Positions 2,520-53,843 of a stretch of DNA of 64,000 bases are shown here, piece by piece. Source of the stretch: Escherichia phage vB_EcoM_WFbE185; sequence record MK373778.1, one strand, 5' to 3'. Under the pieces are notes generated by a model. It had not been told where the DNA came from and made no database searches. It saw nothing but the letters and a program-made list of their open reading frames with translations. Each line of letters starts with the position of its first letter. Position 1 is the stretch's first letter. The translations under genes were made by a program, and so were the position numbers.

Positions 2520-3620
2520 TTACGCTGTGAAGATTTTATCCCACATCGCAACAACTGCATCTCGGTTATACTTCTTCCATACGGCTTCAGCACGTTTAAC
2601 TCGAGCTTCGTATGTGTCAGTGAATTCTAATACAGCTTTTGTGTAAAGCGCAACTACTTCTTTCTTAGGAGTAGAGGAATCAATTTCTACACGCACAGTA
2701 TCTGGGTCGTATTCGAATGTCGCGTGCGGATAATCCTTAAAAACTAACTGAATCACAGGGACACCTTTAGAGATGGCTTCAATAGAACTATTCTCTACCG
2801 TACCCGTGTCAGGACACGTATTGATAAGTGCTTTAGCTGTTTTAAGACGTTCCATGATTTCACTGTGTGGAGCATCAATAATAACAGGATACTTAGCCGG
2901 TGGTGCCCATTTACTAGGACAGTATCCTGCACCATTTTCGCCTAGTGCTTTAATCGCTTCAAGAGCAACATCAGTACGACGCATTTTAGTGTCATAACGT
3001 TGTGCACTAATAATCAGATCAGTCGCCGGAAGAACTTCAGGTTTCTCATTCAAACAAATAACCGGATAATCTTCGGCTTCAAACAATGGATTTGCTCGCC
3101 AATAATCATAATCAATTTTGTCAGTAAGACCTGAAGTCATATAACAATATTTGCGTTCAAATTCACGGAAGGCTTTAGTAGGAGCATAACTCTTACCACC
3201 ATTCTTATGAATTTGAATAGTCTGGTCCCAAATTTGAACAATGCCACGAGATACCGGTTCAAATGGTGTTGCCATAAAATTCTTATGAACTTTAGAGAGA
3301 CCTGCGTCTTTAATTGCCTGAACGGTTAGTTTGGTCGGTTCCATTGTAACAACGAAATCGTACTCATTAATGCCGGCTAGTTCAACAATCTTACGAGCCA
3401 TAGTATAACTCATACCTAGACTGAATTTAGTCAGATGACCAACAGGATGATGATTAACCTTCCAGTCACCAAACGTGTCATTATCAAAGCCGATATAATC
3501 AATATCAGCACCGATGGACACAAGATATTTCAACACATTTAAATGTACTGCTTCAAGACCACCTTGTACACGTTCTGGGTTAAATGGGACTGCGCGAGAT
3601 GGGATAAACATAACTTTCAT
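2520..3620 (-). CDS. GT-B fold (GT4-like) glycosyltransferase, candidate DNA hmC sugar transferase
   Basis: 366 aa; N-terminal MKVMFIPS...GGLE and C-terminal GTVENSSIEAISKGVPVI resemble the GT4 E-x7-E donor-binding motif; occupies the slot where T4 has gene 60/mobA. Confidence 0.6.
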   Translation of the reverse strand: MKVMFIPSRAVPFNPERVQGGLEAVHLNVLKYLVSIGADIDYIGFDNDTFGDWKVNHHPVGHLTKFSLGMSYTMARKIVELAGINEYDFVVTMEPTKLTVQAIKDAGLSKVHKNFMATPFEPVSRGIVQIWDQTIQIHKNGGKSYAPTKAFREFERKYCYMTSGLTDKIDYDYWRANPLFEAEDYPVICLNEKPEVLPATDLIISAQRYDTKMRRTDVALEAIKALGENGAGYCPSKWAPPAKYPVIIDAPHSEIMERLKTAKALINTCPDTGTVENSSIEAISKGVPVIQLVFKDYPHATFEYDPDTVRVEIDSSTPKKEVVALYTKAVLEFTDTYEARVKRAEAVWKKYNRDAVVAMWDKIFTA

Positions 3621-3664: not shown

Positions 3665-5480
3665 AGGACATCCATTCTTTACGAAGTTCTGAATCATCAC
3701 CCAACAACATTTCAAAGAGTTCTTTCCAATTTTCAGGAAGTTTAACTACGTCGTACACAGGGTTCTGAATCATTTCACGATACTCTGACTTTTCAAGGGA
3801 GCCTAATCCCTTGATGTATCGAATACTATGCTTAGGCAGTGTATCTTTAACTTCTTCATACTCAGCTACAGTATAAAACCATTTTTGAGTTTTGCCAATT
3901 TGTGCAATAATTACAGGTGTTTTAACAAAGCGAATACGTCCTTGTTCAAACAATTCGGGCCAATTACTAAAGAAAGCAAGCAAAGCAGGATAAATACTTC
4001 CAAGACCGTCGTGATCGGCATCGGTCATAATTGCAATATTACGATAGTTCGTATTCTCTGCCTTTTCACCAAGAATAAGACCTGTGATAGCACAGATATC
4101 AAAGAGTTCTTTGTTCTTCATCATATCAGCATATGACATACCCCAGCTATTCATCACCTTACCACGTAATGGGAATCCGCCGTGTAGTTCACGGTCACGA
4201 ACATCAATGAGATAACCAATTGCCGAATCACCTTCTGTTAAAAACAATGTCGTATCTGCATCTTTACCACATTGGTTAGCTTTAATATGCTTATGAACCT
4301 TAGCTTTAGTTGCCTTTTTAGCTGCTTTAGTTTCTGCAGCCTTTTCTGCTGCCAATTTACGAGCTAATGCTGCTTCAACAATAGGCATAATCAAGGCTTC
4401 GTTTTTAAGAAGTGCCTGAGCAATTTTCTTAGCATCTAATTGGATATGATTACGAATATCACCATACGTTGACGTTAAACGTTCTTTAGTCTGAGAATCA
4501 AAACGCATGTTGCTCATGTCTCTAATAAACATCAACATTGTGAGACATTCTTTAACACGAGCTTTAGTGACTTCAATACCCTTATATTTCTTTTTAATAC
4601 CGGGCAAAAGATGTTCGCAGATATCATCCATTACACATTCAACATGATGACCACCATTTTTAGTATGGATGTTATTCACATAAGTTAAATGACGGAAGCC
4701 ATCTGGTGATGTTGTGAATGCTATAGAGACTTTATCATTTTCTTGAATGATGTTATCTTCACCAAATTGTTTAGCAAATCGTTTAAAATTACCATCAACC
4801 TTTTTACCATTAAATGTGAACTTGATATCAGGATAAACGACTGCCAATGTTTGAAGTCTGTCTAAAGTAATATCTAAATAAATTTGAGATAAATTATGCT
4901 CTTCAAATGAAGAGAAATCAGGAGTGAAGATTACTTTAGTGCCTTTACCTTTAGATTTCTTAGAAGACCATGATTTGTTTTCCATTCCGTTTGAACAGTT
5001 AACAGTGATTTCGTTTTCGCCATCTGACGTGATGCCTGTAAACAACGTAGAGAAGATATTAGTTAAACTACTCCCGACGCCGTTCATACCACCAGTCTTG
5101 CGTTCAGAGTCATCACCAAAGTTACCACCGGCCTTTGGAATAGTCCAGGCTGCTACAGGTCCAGGAATTTGTTCACCTGTTTGGTCGGTAACTAAACCTT
5201 GAGGAATACCACGTCCGTTATCTTCCACAGAAACTTGATTATTTTTAATTTGCACATCAATTTTATTTGCAAACTTAAATGATGTACGAATAGCTTCATC
5301 AACCGAGTTGTCAATAATCTCATCGATTAATTTAACCAGACCAGGAACATATTCAACTTGTTGATATTTACCAAACAAAAAACGCTCGTGGGCTTCTTTA
5401 GCAGAAGAACCAATATACATACCACTACGTTTCTTAATATGTTCTACATCTGACAATACCTTAATTTCATTTTTAATCAT
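3663..5480 (-). CDS. 39: DNA topoisomerase II large subunit, unsplit (T4 gp39+gp60 equivalent), 605 aa
   Basis: GyrB-like signature KKRSGMYIGS and EDNGRGIP; continuous 605-aa ORF with no gene-60-type interruption. Confidence 0.9.
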   Translation of the reverse strand: MIKNEIKVLSDVEHIKKRSGMYIGSSAKEAHERFLFGKYQQVEYVPGLVKLIDEIIDNSVDEAIRTSFKFANKIDVQIKNNQVSVEDNGRGIPQGLVTDQTGEQIPGPVAAWTIPKAGGNFGDDSERKTGGMNGVGSSLTNIFSTLFTGITSDGENEITVNCSNGMENKSWSSKKSKGKGTKVIFTPDFSSFEEHNLSQIYLDITLDRLQTLAVVYPDIKFTFNGKKVDGNFKRFAKQFGEDNIIQENDKVSIAFTTSPDGFRHLTYVNNIHTKNGGHHVECVMDDICEHLLPGIKKKYKGIEVTKARVKECLTMLMFIRDMSNMRFDSQTKERLTSTYGDIRNHIQLDAKKIAQALLKNEALIMPIVEAALARKLAAEKAAETKAAKKATKAKVHKHIKANQCGKDADTTLFLTEGDSAIGYLIDVRDRELHGGFPLRGKVMNSWGMSYADMMKNKELFDICAITGLILGEKAENTNYRNIAIMTDADHDGLGSIYPALLAFFSNWPELFEQGRIRFVKTPVIIAQIGKTQKWFYTVAEYEEVKDTLPKHSIRYIKGLGSLEKSEYREMIQNPVYDVVKLPENWKELFEMLLGDDSELRKEWMS

Positions 5481-5502
5481 GTTGTCTCCTCGTTATGAAG
5501 GT

Positions 5503-5527
5503 ATTCTATCATCCGAAATCTAAAGCA
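5503..5527 (-). promoter_or_regulatory. MotA-dependent middle-promoter-like element for gene 39 (MotA box TGCTTTA, 12-bp spacer, -10 TAGAAT)
   Basis: Minus strand reads TTGCTTTA-N12-TAGAAT about 20 nt upstream of the gene 39 SD GAGGAG; same composite repeated upstream of gene 47. Confidence 0.5.
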
Positions 5528-5546
5528 AAAAGGGCCGAAGCCCTTA
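5524..5546 (-). terminator. intrinsic terminator (AAGGGC-UUCG-GCCCUU + UUUUUGCUUU)
   Basis: GC stem with UUCG loop and U5 tract directly after the stop of the 140-aa gene; the U tract overlaps the MotA box. Confidence 0.6.
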
Positions 5547-5966
5547 TTTAAATTTAATTTTCTGAAGTGCATCAATTGCAGCTAAACGCCCTTGTTCACT
5601 TTTAACTGTAATGACCACATCGCCTGATACGATCACCGAACCATCAACAAATTCTATAGAGCCTTTTTTGAAATCGACAGCTGTATCTGATTCAGGAACT
5701 TCTTCAAAGAATTTAAATTCTGCACCGTAAATTAGAATATCACCTTGCATACTAATGATTGTACGTCCAGGTCCATCGGTTTCAGCGGCAATCATTGAAA
5801 CACCATAACCAATCATCTCTTCTACAATAAAATCTCTTGATAATAAAACTGTATGCAGAGTAGTGTTAAGACGTTTACCAGTCGTATTAAGAATTCTCAA
5901 GAAATTATCTTCCTGTCCTTTGATAATACGATATTTCTTACCAACTTCAAAACCTTTAAAAGCCAT
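5544..5966 (-). CDS. hypothetical protein (140 aa)
   Basis: ORF with ATG start adjacent to upstream stop; function unknown. Confidence 0.5.
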   Translation of the reverse strand: MAFKGFEVGKKYRIIKGQEDNFLRILNTTGKRLNTTLHTVLLSRDFIVEEMIGYGVSMIAAETDGPGRTIISMQGDILIYGAEFKFFEEVPESDTAVDFKKGSIEFVDGSVIVSGDVVITVKSEQGRLAAIDALQKIKFK

Positions 5967-5968
5967 AA

Positions 5969-6148
5969 TTAACCCTTCTTAAGTAAGTCGTAAAAACCAC
6001 CGTTCACATGTTTAGGAGCAGAAACCCGACGAGTAGACAGACGATGACATTCAGGGCAAACATCGTTTTCTCGTTCAGAAATTCTTTTAATTTTTTCATA
6101 TTCATGACCACAATCTTCAGATTGACATTTATAGTCGTATAACGGCAT
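5969..6148 (-). CDS. FmdB-family zinc-ribbon small protein (59 aa), not in ORF track
   Basis: Translation [18 protein letters not shown]...CPECH has the two CxxC pairs typical of FmdB-type zinc ribbons; fills the gap exactly, TAATG overlap with upstream gene. Confidence 0.55.
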   Translation of the reverse strand: MPLYDYKCQSEDCGHEYEKIKRISERENDVCPECHRLSTRRVSAPKHVNGGFYDLLKKG

Positions 6149-6579
6149 TATTGTTCCTTAAAGTGAGCTTTCAACATTTGATACAAAGACCATGCCTGGT
6201 CATTATTTTCGATAGTAATCGTCATCACAGGAAATTCAGACAATTCGTCAAGTTCACCAGAATCTTGCTCTTCGGACGCTTGATATGGATTTCCAACTTC
6301 GTCAAAGAACTCTGCTTCATTCGTGGAGAGCCAGATAAAGTTTTCATCAAGGATATCACCGCCTGTTGCGTATCCAACCGTGCCAGTAGATGTCACAATT
6401 TTAGTAGGACGACCAAGATGGTCAACATCTAATACTTTAAATGGTTCCATGCCAAGACGTCGTGCATAAATCCCATTATCAGTGTGGTCTTTAATAAACT
6501 CTTCTTGGGCACGTTTATCTTTAAATTGGTACCATGAGTTAACGCTAAATTTATTAGCCATTAGTAAGTTTCCTTCCAA
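6148..6579 (-). CDS. hypothetical acidic protein (143 aa)
   Basis: ORF in operon context; no recognised motif. Confidence 0.5.
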
Positions 6580-6788: not shown

Positions 6789-6814
6789 AATATTCTCCTC
6801 TTGTTTTGATAGGT

Positions 6815-7369
6815 CTATAGTATCATAGACCATAGTTGTTGTACATCATTTAGCAAAATAAAATCAACTTGTTCTGCCAATGAACGTCTGAACATTAATT
6901 GACAACTTCCGAGGATGAAATCAGGTGCTTCATAGACCGCGATGTAGTATCCTTTAGCTTTCAAAAGTTCAACATCCACCTGGTCATCAAACCATGCATA
7001 AACCGCGTCAACACTTTCAAATCCAAAATAGAACCCTTTAGCCCAATCTTCACTCAATTCAAATGTGTGCTCAATTCTATAGTATCTTAAGATATTTTGT
7101 TCAAGGAGTTTGTCTTCATTTACTGTAGGACGATTAGGGACATTATAGTTGTCGCCGTGATGGTAGAAGTTACCTGAGAGTATTCCATGCTTATCAAGGA
7201 ACTCCCATGTTTCTTCAGAGTTGTCGGTGCCCGACCAACCGTATGGCGAACGAGGTTCTTTATTCCAAGAGGTTTCCCAAATTCTGACGGCTTTACCGTC
7301 TTCGATAGCAATTCCTGGTAATGATTCACGTTGAGTACAAAAACTACGTTCTACGCGGTAAACTAACAT
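6815..7369 (-). CDS. hypothetical protein (184 aa)
   Basis: ORF with upstream promoter at 7396-7424. Confidence 0.5.
   Translation of the reverse strand: MLVYRVERSFCTQRESLPGIAIEDGKAVRIWETSWNKEPRSPYGWSGTDNSEETWEFLDKHGILSGNFYHHGDNYNVPNRPTVNEDKLLEQNILRYYRIEHTFELSEDWAKGFYFGFESVDAVYAWFDDQVDVELLKAKGYYIAVYEAPDFILGSCQLMFRRSLAEQVDFILLNDVQQLWSMIL
6817..6845 (-). promoter_or_regulatory. early-type sigma70 promoter (-35 TGTACA, -10 TACTAT with TGn)
   Basis: Member of a repeated intergenic consensus TGTTAtTATAGACCTATCAAC with GTTTAC/TGTACA 17-18 bp upstream. Confidence 0.5.
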
Positions 7370-7428: not shown

Positions 7429-7848
7429 TTATGCAAAAGATGCTTGGCTATATCCTTTGATTTGGAATTCAGGAACTACCATGAACTGTCCAGCGAAAAC
7501 GATGTTATAAAGCTTAACACCATCTTCTACCCAATGGTCGCTAATAAATCCGGCGATTTGCTTAGTTTTCCATGGTGTTCCATCAGTTGCCGCAGCAATA
7601 GTGAATTCATGGTCTTTTTCAACAGAAACTGATCTGCATAGTCCCCATTTGAACGCTTTTTCTTCTGGTTCAATGAATTGGCTTTTAACGTAGCCAATGT
7701 TACCATCGGCGTCACGAACTTTAACTTCGTTACGTCCAAAAACCGGATCACTCACAGAAAGAACTTCAACCAACTTCCCAGCAACTTTAGAGCGAGAAGC
7801 AACAGATACATATACGTAATCACCTGTAGAGAGATTTACAATATTCAT
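7429..7848 (-). CDS. paralog family protein A (139 aa)
   Basis: Shares RSK(V/A)AGKLVEV and D(H/Q)WVEDG.KLYNIVF.G.F.VV motifs with the next two genes. Confidence 0.5.
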   Translation of the reverse strand: MNIVNLSTGDYVYVSVASRSKVAGKLVEVLSVSDPVFGRNEVKVRDADGNIGYVKSQFIEPEEKAFKWGLCRSVSVEKDHEFTIAAATDGTPWKTKQIAGFISDHWVEDGVKLYNIVFAGQFMVVPEFQIKGYSQASFA

Positions 7849-7857
7849 AATAATTCC

Positions 7858-8322
7858 TTAAGCTTTACGAGGAGACACATAGCGAGTGATTTCAGATTCT
7901 TTAACAACTCGGAAGTCACCTAAGAATACGATATTGTATAACTTTTCACCATCTTCAACCCATTGGTCACTAATGAAGCCACACATAGTATCAGTTTTGC
8001 TTGGATAACCGTATTCATCGATGAAGTCAAATTCTTTATCAGTCTGGAATTCAACGCCTTTGCAAAGGGCCCATTTGAACTGTGTAGTAGGCTCAACTAT
8101 ATCGCTTGAAGCAAAGTGGGCACTTACACGAGTTTCCAAGAATTTAGGACTTACATAGGCGAACTGAGTTTCAGTTTTTCCAGAACTAGGAATGATTCGA
8201 ACTTTAACTTCTTTAATACGGCCCATGCCATTAGTACGAAGTCCTACTACTTCAACCAGCTTTCCTGCAGCTTTAGAACGAGACGCTGTCGATACACGTT
8301 TAATTTCACCAATATTAATCAT
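7858..8322 (-). CDS. paralog family protein B (start moved to Met22; alternative start 8385)
   Basis: Paralog of 7429-7848; the promoter-like element at 8354-8382 lies inside the longer ORF. Confidence 0.45.
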   Translation of the reverse strand: MINIGEIKRVSTASRSKAAGKLVEVVGLRTNGMGRIKEVKVRIIPSSGKTETQFAYVSPKFLETRVSAHFASSDIVEPTTQFKWALCKGVEFQTDKEFDFIDEYGYPSKTDTMCGFISDQWVEDGEKLYNIVFLGDFRVVKESEITRYVSPRKA

Positions 8323-8353
8323 ATTTTTTCTCTCTTTGTTTAAATTGAATTCA

Positions 8354-8382
8354 TTATACTCCATCCATCCTTGGATGTACAA
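8354..8382 (-). promoter_or_regulatory. promoter with palindromic spacer (TGTACA, CATCC-TT-GGATG, TATAAT)
   Basis: Variant of the repeated hairpin-promoter element seen at 8911, 51151 and 52171. Confidence 0.4.
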
Positions 8383-8384
8383 CA

Positions 8385-8879
8385 TTAATTTAGAATATTA
8401 ACTACTGCACTACGTGGAACAACGCTAAAATCACCGGCATGAACAACGTTCAGAAGTTCAACCCCATCTTCAATCCACTGATCAGTTACCCATCCACTCA
8501 CTGGACCTGCGAACGGACGACGAATTGAAACAGCTTTACACAACAAATCAGTAGGCTCAATAGGCTTAATCAGAGTACCGTACATACAAGCGATATCCAT
8601 ATCAGTACAGATGTCTTTAACGGGTTCTACTTCTTCAACCAACAGTTCAAAGTCGGTGCTTGGAAGGGCGGTAGTAGAAATTGTACCGTATGAATTTTTA
8701 ATTTCTAAGAATAACCAAGGGCCTTCAGCTTGTTTGATGAAGTTAATAATAGTGAAACTATTACCTTGAGTGGCACCTAAAATTTCACAAAACTTTTCAT
8801 AAGCTCGCACTGAAGCACCGTACCAGTTGATTTGTTTTTCGTCTTTCAGGATGTAAGTAGCCGTAGTATTGATATTCAT
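8385..8879 (-). CDS. paralog family protein C (164 aa)
   Basis: C-terminal WVTDQWIEDGVELLNVVHAGDFSVV matches the paralog motif. Confidence 0.5.
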   Translation of the reverse strand: MNINTTATYILKDEKQINWYGASVRAYEKFCEILGATQGNSFTIINFIKQAEGPWLFLEIKNSYGTISTTALPSTDFELLVEEVEPVKDICTDMDIACMYGTLIKPIEPTDLLCKAVSIRRPFAGPVSGWVTDQWIEDGVELLNVVHAGDFSVVPRSAVVNILN

Positions 8880-8910
8880 AATGTTTTTCCTGTTTGGTTA
8901 AGATAGAAAG

Positions 8911-8940
8911 ATTATACTCCAACCATCCTTGGTTGTAAAC
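8911..8940 (-). promoter_or_regulatory. early promoter (-35 GTTTAC, -10 TATAAT) with 6-bp stem hairpin CAACCA-AGGA-TGGTTG in the spacer
   Basis: A 46-bp element identical to the one at 51135-51180. Confidence 0.55.
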
Positions 8941-8945
8941 TGGTT

Positions 8946-49201: not shown

Positions 49202-49461
49202 TTAAAATATTCTCGTAGTTGGTCAAATCCACCAATGTGACTTCCGTCAGGAGCAAACACCTGAGGCATAGTCAATCCAACTTGTGATTCACGTCCAAGC
49301 TTAACCAGAAGCTCAGTAATTTTCTCATCATCGAACACACCTTTTTCCGGCATAACATTAATGAATTCGAATGGTTGTTTCTTAACAGTCAGCAATCGTT
49401 TCGCATTATCACAATAAATGCATTTATGAATAGTAGAGTCATACCCGTACACTTTAAACAT
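49198..49461 (-). CDS. nrdC: thioredoxin/glutaredoxin NrdC
   Basis: MFKVYGYDSTIHKCIYCDNAKRLLTVKKQPFEFINVMPEKGVFDDEKI nearly identical to T4 NrdC; CxxC active site; start set at Met6. Confidence 0.85.
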   Translation of the reverse strand: MFKVYGYDSTIHKCIYCDNAKRLLTVKKQPFEFINVMPEKGVFDDEKITELLVKLGRESQVGLTMPQVFAPDGSHIGGFDQLREYFK

Positions 49462-49867
49462 TATTTTTCCTTTCATCGATTAAATATGCAATGCCAAATA
49501 CAATACATGTAATAAAACCTGTGATACAGATAGAAACCAACAATACTGTACCAAAGAACCAAATCAAGTTATCTTTGGTAGTTTGTTTGATATCCATCTC
49601 ACGAATTTCTATAGCTATCGTATCACCTTTATTCAGAAGCGTATAAAACGATGGCGATACACGCCTGTCAAAAACTCGTCCTTGCTCATCTTTATAGACT
49701 GCAATAAATTCTAATTTAGAATATTTTCCTGTAGATTGGCCTGAGATTAATTCCACTACCTCCACAGGAATTACTTTAGTTTCCATGTAAGTATTCTGGC
49801 TGTTCCAAATGAATGGAATAATAGCAAAAACTAAAGCTGTGATAAAACAACGAAGGCTATATCTCAT
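49454..49867 (-). CDS. membrane protein (137 aa)
   Basis: N-terminal and C-terminal hydrophobic segments. Confidence 0.45.
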   Translation of the reverse strand: MRYSLRCFITALVFAIIPFIWNSQNTYMETKVIPVEVVELISGQSTGKYSKLEFIAVYKDEQGRVFDRRVSPSFYTLLNKGDTIAIEIREMDIKQTTKDNLIWFFGTVLLVSICITGFITCIVFGIAYLIDERKNNV

Positions 49868-50172
49868 TATAATGTTCTCTCAAATTTGTGGAAGCATTTA
49901 CGGCATTTCAATTTCAAGTTATCAGTTGTCCAGTTAACCAGTTGGACTTGGATAGTTCCACATTCCGGGCATGGATGTTTTGCTGCCGATTTGGCAGCAT
50001 TTTCACGTCGTTCAACCATTTTCATTATTTCGTTCCATGCCGGAGGAACAAACTCTTCTTCACCGTGGATTTTATCTCGCTGAACAAATTCAATCTTTGA
50101 ACTATCGTCAATAAACTTAACCAAGCCATGATTAGTGCTCATATCAATATCCTCTAAAAGACGTAGTTTCAT
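49867..50172 (-). CDS. zinc-ribbon protein (101 aa)
   Basis: CPECG...CRKCFH four-Cys motif. Confidence 0.45.
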   Translation of the reverse strand: MKLRLLEDIDMSTNHGLVKFIDDSSKIEFVQRDKIHGEEEFVPPAWNEIMKMVERRENAAKSAAKHPCPECGTIQVQLVNWTTDNLKLKCRKCFHKFERTL

Positions 50173-51122
50173 TATAACACCTCAATGGCATTTCGTAAAC
50201 CATCCGCTTTCGCATTCAGAGCTTTTAACGATTTAGTTTGTTCTGCAATCTGGGCTTCGACTTCTTTCAGACGAGATTTGAGATATTCGCGTTCTTCTCT
50301 TAAGTTATCAACTTTTTCTGCTTTAGGCTCTTTAATAGGCTTAGGCTTATACTCGTTAGGGTTCTTCAACTTAATTTGAATGCGAGAACTGTATAACATT
50401 GAACCATTATCTTCGGTTTCATCATACATTTCTACCACGTCCATGATTCTTAACATCATGCGAAGTTTATAAGACAGCGAACGAATGGTTTTATTGTGCT
50501 TCTTAATTTCTTCAGCTTTCATGGTGCCGAGATTACGTGAGTAATAATAAGGAACCTGAATATCAATTGATAATGATGCGGTACCATTACCGGTTGGTTT
50601 GAACACTGCAGTAACCCAATCTTTAGCATGAACTGTATTTGTACGATCATCGCCGCCTGTGAATAATTTACGAGAATGTTTAAAAAGCATATTCACTTGG
50701 TTATTGAATTCACAAGCAAATTTATCAGCAAATTTAGTTTCAGGAATGGTAGATAACCAATCAGCCAAATGAGTCTTTTTAACATCATTAACAATAGTGA
50801 ATTCAACCAAATCGGTTTTAGATGTCACAGATTTAATAAAGCTCGGCTTCATAAAGTTTTTAATGTTATCGCGAGCTACAGTAGAAGATAATAAACGAGA
50901 ACGTTTGAACCATTGAAGCAGTGTCCCTAATGAATGAGAATATGCATTTTGAGTATCTTTACAGATATGATTTTCTTGGCCTATGTATGTACCAAAATCT
51001 CGAAGAATACCACTTACTACATCTCGGTGTGGAACATCAAATCCTAGTGCACCAGAAGCACGTTGGGCATGAACGTTAGCGATAAGACCTGCAAAGTATT
51101 CAATGTAATGTGAACGTGTCAT
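50172..51122 (-). CDS. hypothetical protein (316 aa) with C-terminal coiled coil
   Basis: C-terminal heptad-rich region LREEREYLKSRLKEVEAQIAEQTKSLKALNAK. Confidence 0.5.
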   Translation of the reverse strand: MTRSHYIEYFAGLIANVHAQRASGALGFDVPHRDVVSGILRDFGTYIGQENHICKDTQNAYSHSLGTLLQWFKRSRLLSSTVARDNIKNFMKPSFIKSVTSKTDLVEFTIVNDVKKTHLADWLSTIPETKFADKFACEFNNQVNMLFKHSRKLFTGGDDRTNTVHAKDWVTAVFKPTGNGTASLSIDIQVPYYYSRNLGTMKAEEIKKHNKTIRSLSYKLRMMLRIMDVVEMYDETEDNGSMLYSSRIQIKLKNPNEYKPKPIKEPKAEKVDNLREEREYLKSRLKEVEAQIAEQTKSLKALNAKADGLRNAIEVL

Positions 51123-51150
51123 AATATTTTCCTCTCGTTAAGATAGAAAG

Positions 51151-51180
51151 ATTATACTCCAACCATCCTTGGTTGTAAAC
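51151..51180 (-). promoter_or_regulatory. early promoter with spacer hairpin (copy of the 8911-8940 element)
   Basis: 46-bp identity with 8895-8940: gttaagatagaaagattatactccaaccatccttggttgtaaactg. Confidence 0.55.
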
Positions 51181-51184
51181 TGAT

Positions 51185-52144
51185 TTATGATTTTAACGCA
51201 TTCATTGCGTTAAAAAGTTTAGAATACTGCAACTGGAGATTCGTTACAACACTTTGAGCATCACGAAGCTTAGCTTGTGCTTTGTCAAGTTCAACAGACA
51301 GTTGGTCCATAGTGGCCTTGATTTGATTGTAATGGTAATCTTCGGCCGGAAGAAGGTCATTATAAACATTTAGTTTTACTGCAGACAGTTTGCACACATT
51401 TGGCAAACCTTTAAACATTGATTTAGCCGAAGTAGAATAAGCACTTAGGACTTCGGCTTGTTCAATTGGGGTCCCAGTAAGCGATGATTCAAACAATGCA
51501 TTTTCCTTTTTAAGATTTTGATAGTATTCAGAGTCTTTGTGCCACCATGGCGCAGGAACCTTTTTACCAATAGATACACGTGCCTGGATAGCGATATGGC
51601 CTTTATTCTTGATAGGGTTGATAATATTAAGCTCGCGAGAATAAATTGCTTTAATCTGGTGGATATTATCACCTAACACTTCCAACGCTTGGTGAAATAC
51701 ACGAGCAACGTTATCATTCTTAGGTTTATACGTAAGAGTGAACTCGTTCTCACTGATAACCATGATTTCTAACTTATCGTAAGTATATTTCAAATGTTTC
51801 ATGTTAATTGCTTGAGGACGAATACGAGAAGCAATGGCCATCAGATTGTTAAGGTTATTTCTGAACTGTTTAGCAAAATATTGTCCATAACCGCCAATGC
51901 AAAAATTACGAAGTTTCTGTTTGGCCAATAAACGGCTGAACTCGCCATTTTTAATGAACTCTTTAACGGGTGTGTTAGTAACGCATTCAAATTGAGTAAA
52001 CTTACGAGAATTAATCCCATAATACGAACAGATTTCCTCAATCTCTTCAGGAGTCTTTACAGGCATACGGATAGGATTAGGTCCTGGAGTATATGCGTTC
52101 GAGGTAAATTCTTTGATAAGTTCTCTACGTGTAATAAAAGCCAT
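51185..52144 (-). CDS. hypothetical protein (319 aa) with C-terminal coiled coil
   Basis: C-terminal MDQLSVELDKAQAKLRDAQSVVTNLQLQY. Confidence 0.5.
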   Translation of the reverse strand: MAFITRRELIKEFTSNAYTPGPNPIRMPVKTPEEIEEICSYYGINSRKFTQFECVTNTPVKEFIKNGEFSRLLAKQKLRNFCIGGYGQYFAKQFRNNLNNLMAIASRIRPQAINMKHLKYTYDKLEIMVISENEFTLTYKPKNDNVARVFHQALEVLGDNIHQIKAIYSRELNIINPIKNKGHIAIQARVSIGKKVPAPWWHKDSEYYQNLKKENALFESSLTGTPIEQAEVLSAYSTSAKSMFKGLPNVCKLSAVKLNVYNDLLPAEDYHYNQIKATMDQLSVELDKAQAKLRDAQSVVTNLQLQYSKLFNAMNALKS

Positions 52145-52170
52145 TTTATATTCCTCATGTTGAAAAATTT

Positions 52171-52199
52171 ATTATACTCCAACCATCCTTGGTTGTACA
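52171..52199 (-). promoter_or_regulatory. early promoter with spacer hairpin (third copy; -35 TGTACA)
   Basis: Shares ttatactccaaccatccttggttgta with the 8911 and 51151 elements. Confidence 0.5.
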
Positions 52200-53195
52200 T
52201 CATTCCTTAAGAAGTTTTACTACTTGAATAAGATTAGCTCGTTCTGTTTTATTTTTACCGTTTAAGCCTGCTAATCGTGAGATTTCATCGTCAGTCTGCT
52301 GAATAGTTACATTAAGTTCGTTAATCAAAGCTTCAAAGTATTTGATTTGCTCAGCATGTTTTGATTCAAATTTCTGAACTGGAATAACGTCTTGGTTTAG
52401 TTCATCAATAAGGTCTTTAAGAGCATCTTCTTGGTTGATATCATATTCAACTTCTTTTATTTCTTCAACAAGCTCGTCTTTATATCTAACGTCTTTTAGT
52501 CCTGGTGCTGGTCCTGAAATCTCTTCTTTAAGAGTACAAACATACCCAATACGGTATCCAATGCCGTCTCGCTTGATATCAACTTCGTCGATAAATCCAC
52601 AATGTTTAAGACCAGAGCCGATTAGGTCAAAATATCCTTGACGTCGTCCTTCAAACGTTACACGAACTACTAAGACAGTTTTGCCTGCAACCTTTTGAAG
52701 CTCACATTTATAAAAGTCAGTTGAACCTGAATAACTTGGATGAGTTTTAAAGTTCATCTGACGATCTAGGCCCATTTGTAAGCGTGCTGTTACGGCCATA
52801 AAACGTGTTTGGTTCTCGTTAAGATGAGCAACAATCCATTTCAAAGGCATTTTACACTGTTCACGGCCGAACAAATCAGTACGTCCTAGATTACGCAGGA
52901 TGTTGTTAGAGTTAATCATCGACAGAACGTTAAGTTTATTCAGCGCGCTGAAGATTCCATCAGCCATTGATTTTCCATAACCTTTACACGCTTTAATAAG
53001 TGCTCGCGGCAGATTAGTATAGATTTCAGACGGCATATGAAAATCAAATTTACTAGTCAGTAATTGATGAACTTGGATAGCAATTTGTTCATAATTAAGT
53101 GCCCTGCGATCATTATGGTCTTTAAACCATACTTTAATCTGTGAAGCACATAAACCGTTAATTTCATGTTTTACCGCATCAGATGTAATGCTCAT
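52200..53195 (-). CDS. hypothetical protein (331 aa) with C-terminal coiled coil
   Basis: C-terminal IKYFEALINELNVTIQQTDDEISRLAG. Confidence 0.5.
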   Translation of the reverse strand: MSITSDAVKHEINGLCASQIKVWFKDHNDRRALNYEQIAIQVHQLLTSKFDFHMPSEIYTNLPRALIKACKGYGKSMADGIFSALNKLNVLSMINSNNILRNLGRTDLFGREQCKMPLKWIVAHLNENQTRFMAVTARLQMGLDRQMNFKTHPSYSGSTDFYKCELQKVAGKTVLVVRVTFEGRRQGYFDLIGSGLKHCGFIDEVDIKRDGIGYRIGYVCTLKEEISGPAPGLKDVRYKDELVEEIKEVEYDINQEDALKDLIDELNQDVIPVQKFESKHAEQIKYFEALINELNVTIQQTDDEISRLAGLNGKNKTERANLIQVVKLLKE

Positions 53196-53257
53196 AACTA
53201 TTTCCTCAGATTGAATTGGAACTCAAAACCATTATAACCCGTCCTTGGGTAAAGCGT

Positions 53258-53785
53258 TTATGCGTGAACCGTCTTTAAACGTTCTTCAAATTTCCGAAGA
53301 GTACTAATACGTTCTGCTTTCTGTTTTGTATAGTTTGCAATACGTTCTGAAGTGAGAGCGTATCGTTCGTTTACTGTTTCTTTCATGAAGTCAGGGATTT
53401 CACGAGAAGCTTTAATTTCATCAAACTTATCGAGTACTGCCTGGTCTTCAGCAATTAAATTTTCGTACATCTCGATATCTTTCTTGATGAAGTCGATATC
53501 TTCCTGGGTTACTTTGGATAAACGAGATGCCTTATCCTTTTTGTACTGCTCGTTAGTTTCACGAGACCAGAATAATGTACGTTTTTTGTTAGTGTTTTTG
53601 TAGACTTCCACAATTCCAACTGAATCGATGATAACAATCCAATTCCAGCGAGATTTGAAAATCTGACCTCCGTCCACGGTAATCTCGTTACCATAAGCAA
53701 TGTCATTAAAGAACTTACTTTGTGCTTCAGATTTAAATTTACCGTCGTTATAATTTACCAGGTTGAAAATATCTTTAGCGTTCAT
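53258..53785 (-). CDS. hypothetical protein (175 aa), coiled-coil rich
   Basis: ORF downstream of promoter 53813-53841. Confidence 0.5.
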   Translation of the reverse strand: MNAKDIFNLVNYNDGKFKSEAQSKFFNDIAYGNEITVDGGQIFKSRWNWIVIIDSVGIVEVYKNTNKKRTLFWSRETNEQYKKDKASRLSKVTQEDIDFIKKDIEMYENLIAEDQAVLDKFDEIKASREIPDFMKETVNERYALTSERIANYTKQKAERISTLRKFEERLKTVHA

Positions 53786-53812
53786 GTTTTACCTCCAGTA
53801 GTTGATAGGTCT

Positions 53813-53841
53813 ATAATAACATAACCATAGACCTTGTAAAC
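53813..53841 (-). promoter_or_regulatory. early-type promoter (-35 GTTTAC, 17 bp, TGT-TATTAT)
   Basis: Same consensus block as 20308-20336; GGTCTAT/ATAGACC inverted repeat. Confidence 0.55.
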
Positions 53842-53843
53842 AA

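Follow-up and report, generated by a model that had tools for sequence, protein, structure and literature searches.

The subject of this analysis is a group of four open reading frames (ORFs) on the minus strand of a 64,000-nucleotide stretch (the window) of Escherichia phage vB_EcoM_WFbE185 (sequence record MK373778.1), lying upstream of the thioredoxin gene nrdC and encoding proteins of 316, 319, 331 and 175 amino acids (aa). The principal conclusion is that the first three are true, if very diverged, tandem paralogues that are related along most of their length, whereas the 175-aa gene is a conserved neighbour that shows no sign of being related to them. On balance we favour, albeit with modest confidence, the view that these paralogues most likely encode early-expressed, dispensable proteins concerned with counter-defence or host range. 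The four ORFs themselves are just as originally predicted from the DNA letters (Table 1), but the idea put forward at that time, that their N-terminal regions are unrelated and that only heptad-rich C-terminal segments are similar, does not hold for the three longer proteins, which prove on profile comparison to be related through their N-terminal and central domain.

The window belongs to a Mosigvirus, i.e. an RB69-like T4-type phage, and the region of interest is 98-99% identical to that of Mosigvirus phages. Correspondences with T4 genes were drawn from the annotated T4 genome together with direct protein comparison. For the 316-aa protein these gave 56% identity to T4 NrdC.3 over the full length; for the 319-aa protein, the gene for which has the same place in the gene order as T4 nrdC.5, 25% identity to T4 NrdC.5 over 304 aa (E-value, E, 8e-10; 27% overall in the orthologue comparison); for the 331-aa protein 29% identity to T4 NrdC.6 (E 5e-18, with NrdC.6-type identities at 29-33%); and for the 175-aa protein 83% identity to T4 NrdC.8. 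The two regions differ in that T4 has NrdC.4 while Mosigvirus is without it, and also in the location of NrdC.7, which in T4 lies between nrdC.8 and nrdC.6, whereas the Mosigvirus homologue, a membrane-type ORF of 137 aa at positions 49454-49867 (41% identity to T4 NrdC.7), adjoins nrdC; the NrdC.7 gene has therefore moved relative to the paralogue array.

In terms of curated families, precomputed Pfam assignments place the 316- and 331-aa proteins in PF26897 and PF26899 respectively, while the 319-aa protein belongs to DUF7235 (PF23882); the corresponding PHROG families are 1435, 2257 and 2351, with PHROG 2274 for the 175-aa protein, all four being families of unknown function. The DUF7235 match of the 319-aa protein is unambiguous (407.3 bits against a gathering cut-off of 30, with residues 15-318 aligned to model positions 1-307), and the same model gives 420.6 bits for T4 NrdC.5 and 389.6 bits for a Dhakavirus homologue. 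No match to DUF7235 was found in the 316-, 331- or 175-aa proteins at E up to 1, and the PF26897 and PF26899 proteins are best described as sister families of DUF7235 rather than as members of it. Searches of NCBIfam and PADLOC returned nothing meaningful. It may be added that in many GenBank records NrdC.3,.4,.5,.6,.8 and.10 are labelled “thioredoxin”, apparently an inheritance from the nrdC.x gene names, and a Pfam scan found no match of thioredoxin models to these proteins; in one T6 record NrdC.5 is named “tail sheath stabilizer and completion protein”.

At the level of single sequences there is little to suggest that the three longer proteins belong together: pairwise BLASTP amongst the four window proteins gives matches at chance level (best E 0.18-5), and a word-indexed protein search with the three retrieves close relatives only, a set too shallow for modelling of structures, although protein comparison does show T4 NrdC.4 to match the 316-aa protein at E 9e-5. 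Family alignments were built from 21 loci of Tequatro-, Mosig- and Dhakavirus phages and compared profile against profile. The NrdC.3 and NrdC.4 profiles match with a probability of 97-98% (E 1e-11 to 3e-13, over 210-227 columns), and since the signal is still 97.6% after removal of the last 65 residues it does not arise from coiled-coil composition; the same two families also match one another when a hidden Markov model (HMM) is compared with sequences (with 897 ORFs as background, E as low as 1e-14). NrdC.4 and NrdC.5 match at 90-92% (E ~1e-6, ~240 columns, z=14), while the neighbouring proteins NrdC.10 and NrdC.11, used as controls, reach 1.4% or less. The NrdC.6 family at first gave 28-67% against a merged NrdC.3/4/5 profile, with z=8.3 relative to 100 column shuffles.

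The case for NrdC.6 is much improved by more distant sequences. Using NrdC.10 as an anchor, the region was fetched from eight further genera, and in Winklervirus X20, Gelderlandvirus SEA1, Moonvirus Moon and Jiaodavirus JD18 a single ORF of 324-346 aa was found between NrdC.10 and nrdC. These four, when pooled, match NrdC.3, NrdC.4 and NrdC.5 at 94%, 95% and 96.5% respectively, and once such single-copy members are included NrdC.6 matches the rest at 87% (E 4e-6, z=15), its score of 48.5 comparing with 12.3 +/- 2.4 for a shuffle null (maximum 20.0, so that none of the 100 shuffles reaches it) and 13.3 for the reversed profile. A dedicated comparison tool working from independently made alignments gave 91.3% (E 1e-6) over 148 colinear columns, which span both of the conserved motifs described below, the strands and the following helix, i.e. 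the globular region and not the coiled coil. Karamvirus VPA32 orf085, which had been included in no profile, matches the merged profile at 94% and the NrdC.6 HMM at E 2e-6, and an ORF adjoining the thioredoxin gene of an Acinetobacter phage reaches 74%, as against 0.5% or less for 29 other ORFs of similar size from these loci.

Because the profile signal is located in the N-terminal and central parts of the proteins and persists when the coiled coil is cut off, the paralogy is not limited to the coiled coil. In T4 the superfamily comprises NrdC.3, NrdC.4, NrdC.5 and NrdC.6, and it is specific to T4-like phages; as far as we have checked, what is new here is the link between families that were themselves known, though mostly uncharacterised. 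The outcome that had been named beforehand as refuting the original prediction, namely that sensitive alignments show no relationship between the proteins, is found only for the 175-aa protein. The suggestion of a diversified accessory gene family is right for the 316-, 319- and 331-aa genes, and more strongly so than was first supposed, given their paralogy and natural loss (see below), but is not supported for the 175-aa gene.

Alignment of 16 representatives from nine genera, including the three window proteins, reveals a common architecture. This begins with a globular alpha/beta region of ~250 residues that contains two conserved motifs, approximately (K/R)(S/T)x(L/I)(S/T)...(L/I)(R/K)N(F/Y) and F..N...(L/I)L...(R/K)L..GDD(R/K), followed by a helix with the pattern L..AL..M..V, a linker of variable length and, finally, a C-terminal coiled coil of 45-55 residues that ends in L..A(I/L)..L. 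The motif region of the 316-aa protein aligns in 16/16 representatives and carries the profile-profile signal, while the motifs of the 331-aa protein are supported by residue-by-residue profile alignment. (A superfamily alignment made from a more restricted sequence set was dropped, since motif 1 of the NrdC.3 family was wrongly placed in it.) The start Met is the only invariant residue among the 16 representatives, which argues for a binding protein rather than an enzyme; the GDD(R/K) of motif 2 was considered as a catalytic site and rejected, since it is not conserved across the families. Sequence and profile searches of the PDB found no solved structure matching the first 250 positions.

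The number of copies depends on the genus: there are four in Tequatrovirus, three in Mosigvirus (no NrdC.4), three in Dhakavirus (no NrdC.3), and a single copy beside nrdC in at least five further T4-like genera. Between sister genera the orthologues of the three paralogues are 27-56% identical, NrdC.5 being the lowest at 27%, as compared with 83% for NrdC.8. Several natural isolates have lost or damaged individual copies. In ACG-C40 a deletion runs from nrdC.5 into nrdC.3 (locus L006, 5730-6140), so that of NrdC.5 only residues 1-71 survive, together with a vestige of the coiled coil of NrdC.3; in Pinarejo (locus L007, 5936-6149) nrdC.6 is gone except for its last ~45 codons; and in a metagenomic T4-like contig (L010) NrdC.4 is split into pieces of 193 and 158 aa. 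T4 itself (locus L002, AF158101; nrdC.6 at 5567-6394) has an NrdC.6 of 275 aa that is frameshifted relative to the 295-aa NrdC.6 of PST, and the lost coiled-coil end, SSKAKSEREKLIKIVDLLKS, can still be read in another frame beyond the stop codon, at 5497-5566. The deletions and truncations in ACG-C40, Pinarejo and T4 itself establish that the three paralogue genes are dispensable in nature.

As to wider distribution, a scan of viral contigs with the NrdC.6 alignment found 14 loci, all of them from Tequatro-, Mosig- or Dhakavirus, and when 1.84 billion representatives were searched exhaustively by HMMER, the profile of Mosigvirus NrdC.5 found only its own cluster and one fragment, T4-type NrdC.5 not being reached in that search at a database-wide E of 0.001. 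The Mosigvirus NrdC.5 lineage would thus appear to be narrow, and the family limited to T4-like phages. Ahead of the single-copy member, the distant genera have a well-conserved ORF of ~260 aa (L022 11226-11999, L023 10135-10917, L025 11295-12083, L026 11378-12154 and L024 11046-11859), which is 65-79% identical between genera and split in two in phage Moon; it carries no annotation, and no counterpart was found in the T4, RB69 and Dhaka clade.

The functional interpretation starts from the one member of the superfamily for which there is an experiment. A T4 clone carrying a compensatory deletion was unable to infect either ECOR17 or K-12 carrying the ECOR17 dsr1 gene, and plasmid-borne nrdC.5 restored plating of that clone on dsr1 cells (Srikant, Guegler, Laub, eLife 2022, PMC9391042). 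Dsr1, a defence protein with a sirtuin domain, is believed to deplete NAD+ (nicotinamide adenine dinucleotide), and papers up to 2026 describe it as poorly characterised. Sharing with T4 NrdC.5 its curated family, its place in the gene order, a similar size, the motifs and the terminal coiled coil, the 319-aa protein belongs, as a divergent member, to a counter-defence family validated by experiment, although it differs from T4 NrdC.5 in that the identity is only 25-27%; the 316- and 331-aa paralogues are further removed and lie outside DUF7235. The candidacy of all three for counter-defence follows from this activity of T4 NrdC.5 taken together with the paralogy, and natural loss, genus-dependent copy number, extreme divergence and restriction to T4-like phages are what lead us to read them as accessory genes of an arms race. 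A functional analogy, and no more than that, is offered by DSAD1, another phage protein directed against a defence-associated sirtuin, which is reported to bind its target directly; the target is DSR2 and not Dsr1, the phages that carry DSAD1 are those of Bacillus, and no common ancestry is claimed.

There are clear caveats to the counter-defence interpretation. Given that T4 NrdC.5 is the only superfamily member to have been tested by experiment, its specificity may not carry over to a protein with only 25-27% identity; no published mechanism for NrdC.5 was found in the searchable literature; and direct binding of a defence protein is suggested by analogy rather than by any result. The link of NrdC.6 to the rest is of the order of 90%, not 99%, and is seen only in profile-profile mode, HMM-to-sequence cross-matches for NrdC.6 being absent against the 897-ORF background. 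The two independent AlphaFold models, of the 331- and 316-aa proteins, are poor and unreliable in three dimensions (mean pLDDT, the predicted local distance difference test score, 50 and 52), and even though both show the same order of helices and strands, a common three-dimensional fold can only be presumed. A Foldseek search of such a poor model against viral models was likewise uninformative, as it recovered only the protein's own family, and that through sequence, with template modelling (TM) scores of 0.2-0.3 that are meaningless. The heptad measure used for the coiled coils is crude. Finally, the fact that a single copy is kept near nrdC in many genera could mean that these proteins have some general role in infection and not one tied to particular hosts.

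This last point leads to the most serious alternative, which we think possible but doubtful: the superfamily would be real, but its members would not be counter-defence proteins, serving instead some general early function, such as that of a scaffold or regulator for nucleotide metabolism or replication, with the anti-Dsr1 activity being either lineage-specific or indirect. The persistence of a single copy between NrdC.10, an AAA-type protein, and nrdC does point to a long-standing role, the genes round about include those for thioredoxin, a nucleotidyltransferase and ribonucleotide reductase, and a coiled coil that is the best or second-best conserved part of each protein is what one would expect of a structural or assembly component. 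However, natural isolates in which the paralogue genes are missing, split or frameshifted remain viable, and the T4 clone lacking nrdC.5 grew normally on the laboratory host (PMC9391042); moreover, the combination of extreme divergence between sister genera with a variable number of copies is typical of an arms race and not of a housekeeping function.

The 175-aa protein requires separate consideration. Its family gives probabilities of 0.1-0.9% against every family of the superfamily (z=0.4-0.6, which is the level of the null), and neither the two motifs nor the terminal L..A..L signature was found in it. One might nevertheless suppose it to be a truncated member of the family that has kept only the helical tail and has diverged beyond detection, given that its gene lies directly upstream of the array and is transcribed in the same direction, that the C-terminal half of the protein is long and helix-prone, and that the best comparison confined to the C-terminus, with NrdC.6, reaches 9% (E 0.004). 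We consider this very unlikely, not only because of the null full-length comparisons and the missing motifs and signature, but also because the protein is evenly conserved (80-90% identity to T4 NrdC.8 in every 40-residue block) where the paralogues diverge fast, and because the promoter of its gene carries a different inverted repeat.

Coiled coils had originally been proposed at the C-termini of all four proteins. What was looked for was heptad periodicity that extends through four heptads or more of a helix free of Pro. Using the heptad score, judged against the 95th percentile of shuffled sequences, residues 279-316 of the 316-aa protein score 0.91 (95th percentile 0.81) and residues 269-319 of the 319-aa protein 0.96 (0.79), and the only fairly confident part of the 316-aa AlphaFold model is a single helix at 275-315 (pLDDT about 70-83). 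For the 331-aa protein the score is borderline and the modelled helices (273-294, 302-308 and 316-330) are of low confidence, while the score of the 175-aa protein is not above that of shuffles. The proposal therefore stands for the 316- and 319-aa proteins, is uncertain for the interrupted segment of the 331-aa protein and must be given up for the 175-aa protein; the structure modelling suggested at that time as a check bears it out for the helix of the 316-aa protein and is otherwise too poor to be of use. When Mosigvirus and Tequatrovirus orthologues are compared, the coiled-coil block ranks first or second in conservation in all three families: in the 316-aa protein it is the second most conserved 40-residue block (72% to T4), in the 319-aa protein the most conserved (51% to T4 NrdC.5, against 27% overall), and in the 331-aa protein the C-terminal blocks, at 60% and 54% to PST NrdC.6, are again the most conserved. 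PDB matches of the family and superfamily profiles are to coiled-coil chains only (lamin, GCN4, prefoldin, tetherin and SMC), through the last 60-70 positions. That the four proteins have nothing in common beyond such C-terminal segments, having been acquired independently or assembled by domain shuffling, is scarcely credible, since for all that pairwise BLASTP finds nothing, that each protein has a separate Pfam or PHROG family and that the C-terminal 65 residues compared alone give weak signals, the profile signal is colinear over 150-240 columns of the N-terminal and central region and is still there without the coiled coil, all families of the superfamily are connected by bridging sequences, and the 175-aa protein lacks even the C-terminal similarity.

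Each of the four genes is preceded by a promoter-like element (Table 1). A 27-nucleotide (nt) sequence, TACAACCAAGGATGGTTGGAGTATAAT, occurs in identical copies at 51151-51177 and 52171-52197, immediately ahead of the genes for the 316- and 319-aa proteins, exactly as in the original prediction, and the window holds four near-identical copies of this cassette as against 0 expected, the other two being at 8353-8379 and 8911-8939. The early promoter predicted for the 175-aa gene was likewise found again upstream of it. For the 331-aa gene no promoter had been recognised, but there is in fact a degenerate copy of the hairpin cassette, reading AAACGCTTTA-ACCC.AAGGAC.GGGT-TATAAT. The heading of the original prediction, which spoke of three genes served by copies of the element, was therefore right in its number if the genes are taken to be the 316-, 319- and 331-aa ones, rather than its text, which gave two copies and one standard promoter.

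The cassette of the 331-aa gene is of a different promoter class. T4 middle promoters have a MotA box, (a/t)(a/t)(a/t)TGCTTtA, placed 12 +/- 1 base pairs (bp) from a good -10 element (Hinton 2010), and AAACGCTTTA-N13-TATAAT, together with three A at 53257-53259, agrees with the box at 9/10 positions and has a perfect -10; a MotA-dependent middle promoter is thus predicted at this place in the present phage. The T4 counterpart, CGCTTTA-TATACC.AAGGAT.GGTATA(AT), is the mapped middle promoter PnrdC.7, the listed start site of which (53325) is 7 nt past the TATAAT of the T4 cassette. As the Mosigvirus homologue of NrdC.7 has been relocated beside nrdC, the PnrdC.7-type promoter would here directly serve the NrdC.6-type gene. 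In the case of the 175-aa gene, the upstream half of the promoter, TAGTTGTTTACAAG, is conserved in T4, PST and MX01. This promoter lies inside an inverted repeat of 11 pairs at 53786-53843 (the AAGGUCUAUGG...UUAUAGACCUA region; -13.6 kcal/mol, z=-2.0), and the promoter as a whole is bracketed by a further pair of arms, TAGTTG...CAACTA.

The hairpin motif occurs 51 times in the 490 kilobases (kb) of sequence fetched, compared with 2.9 expected, always followed by a -10-like hexamer, and is confined to the T4, RB69 and Dhaka clade; at the T4 locus (L002) hairpin cassettes are present at 3361-3414, 4417-4473 and 6804-6858. It consists of a constant AAGGAY loop (AAGGAT or AAGGAC) within six different, perfectly complementary and covarying stems (CAACC, CATCC, ACCC, AGCC, CCAC and TTATACC), placed between the -35 or MotA box and the -10. 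Two other interpretations of the hairpins were rejected: as terminators, because they have only 4-7 pairs and no U-tract and are missed by a terminator scan, and as unusually stable RNA, because their folding energies are ordinary (z from +1.4 to -2.9).

A related arrangement has been described in T4-type phages in the form of early-promoter stem-loop (PeSL) cassettes, repeated intergenic elements in which a strong early promoter of sigma-70 type is combined with a stem-loop, which are concentrated among variable, non-essential genes and have been proposed to drive gene shuffling by recombination (Arbiol et al. 2010; Comeau et al. 2014); a middle-promoter version (PmSL) has also been described. 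The cassettes in the window resemble these in being repeated and intergenic, in having a near-consensus sigma-70 promoter (TTTACA-N17-TATAAT) and in lying among variable genes. They differ in that the hairpin is within the promoter spacer (in one variant overlapping the -10) rather than beside the promoter, and in that, with its constant AAGGAY loop and short stems, it appears not to be a terminator-like or attenuator-like stem-loop of the kind by which PeSL cassettes are defined; the string AAGGA was not found in the text of either of those papers.

The other cassettes of the window accompany what looks like a second paralogue array: three tandem minus-strand ORFs between 7429 and 8879 (7429-7848, 7858-8385 and 8385-8879), with hairpin cassettes between them and a common C-terminal motif, GF(I/V)SDQW(V/I)EDG.(K/E)L(Y/L)N(I/V)V..G.F.VV. 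The cassettes at 8895-8945 and 51135-51181, 42 kb apart, have an identical stretch of 46 nt, CAGTTTACAACCAAGGATGGTTGGAGTATAATCTTTCTATCTTAAC, which would be long enough to act as a substrate for T4-type homologous recombination.

Table 1. Positions in the 64,000-nt window of the four genes upstream of nrdC, the principal features of their products, and the associated promoter-like sites.
Feature	Position	Strand	Remarks
316-aa gene	50172..51122	-	T4 nrdC.3 orthologue; assigned to superfamily
Core motifs 1 and 2, 316-aa protein	50640..50912	-	Residues 71-161: WFKRSRLLSSTVARDNIKNFM ... FACEFNNQVNMLFKHSRKLFTGGDDRT
C-terminal coiled coil (predicted), 316-aa protein	50175..50300	-	Residues 275-316; heptad score and AlphaFold helix
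Early-type cassette, 316-aa gene	51151..51179	-	TTTACA, hairpin CAACC.AAGGAT.GGTTG, GAG-TATAAT; 17-bp spacer
319-aa gene	51185..52144	-	Mosigvirus-type nrdC.5; family of T4 anti-Dsr1 protein
Core motifs 1 and 2, 319-aa protein	51794..51958	-	Residues 63-117: EFSRLLAKQKLRNFC ... FAKQFRNNLNNLMAIASRIRPQAINMKH
C-terminal coiled coil (predicted), 319-aa protein	51188..51340	-	Residues 269-319; heptad score
Early-type cassette, 319-aa gene	52171..52199	-	As for 316-aa gene, first hexamer TGTACA
331-aa gene	52200..53195	-	nrdC.6-type; assigned as distant superfamily member
Core motifs 1 and 2, 331-aa protein	52758..52946	-	Residues 84-146: ALNKLNVLSMINSNNILRNLG ... IVAHLNENQTRFMAVTARLQMGLDRQ
C-terminal helical segment (predicted), 331-aa protein	52206..52379	-	Residues 273-330; interrupted at GLNGKNK; ends L..(A/V)..LLK
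Middle-type (MotA-box) cassette, 331-aa gene	53231..53256	-	(AAA)CGCTTTA, hairpin ACCC.AAGGAC.GGGT, TATAAT; 13-bp spacer
175-aa gene	53258..53785	-	T4 nrdC.8 orthologue; conserved neighbour, placed outside family
Early-type promoter-like site, 175-aa gene	53813..53840	-	TTTACA-N16-TATTAT with TG, within different inverted repeat

The gene, which is present once beside nrdC in several T4-like genera, has thus become a set of three or four in the clade of T4, RB69 and Dhakavirus, where every copy has an early or middle promoter cassette to itself. If the counter-defence interpretation is adopted, the proteins would neutralise host defence proteins by binding to them, with the fast-diverging globular domain setting the specificity for the target and the better-conserved coiled coil providing for oligomerisation. 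It is possible to go further, although only as a tentative proposal that we ourselves would not regard as probable, and to see NrdC.3,.4,.5 and.6 as an expandable array of inhibitors, each directed through its fast-evolving globular domain against a different immune protein of the host (a sirtuin of Dsr1 type or some other sensor), in which the shared coiled coil forms homo- or hetero-oligomers and the cassettes act both as recombination substrates, by which the array is duplicated, deleted and reshuffled, and as insulators of the expression of each copy.

T4 and RB69 are reference phages for the study of bacterial immunity, and yet NrdC.3,.4 and.6 are still described as hypothetical proteins or mislabelled as thioredoxins. 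Through their paralogy to an anti-Dsr1 protein, three genes in each phage that had been orphans become specific candidates for a role in counter-defence or host range, with a conserved core and variable regions that are now defined for mutagenesis, and the natural variation in the array (four copies in phages of T4 type, three in those of RB69 and Dhaka type, and one in five other genera) could be matched to the defence repertoires of hosts. At the level of expression, one covarying hairpin motif now links two promoters of early type with a middle promoter that has been mapped in T4, a connection of relevance to the way in which T4-type phages duplicate and shuffle accessory genes. Should the proposal of an inhibitor array turn out to be true, T4 and RB69 would carry a previously unrecognised multi-gene anti-immunity locus.

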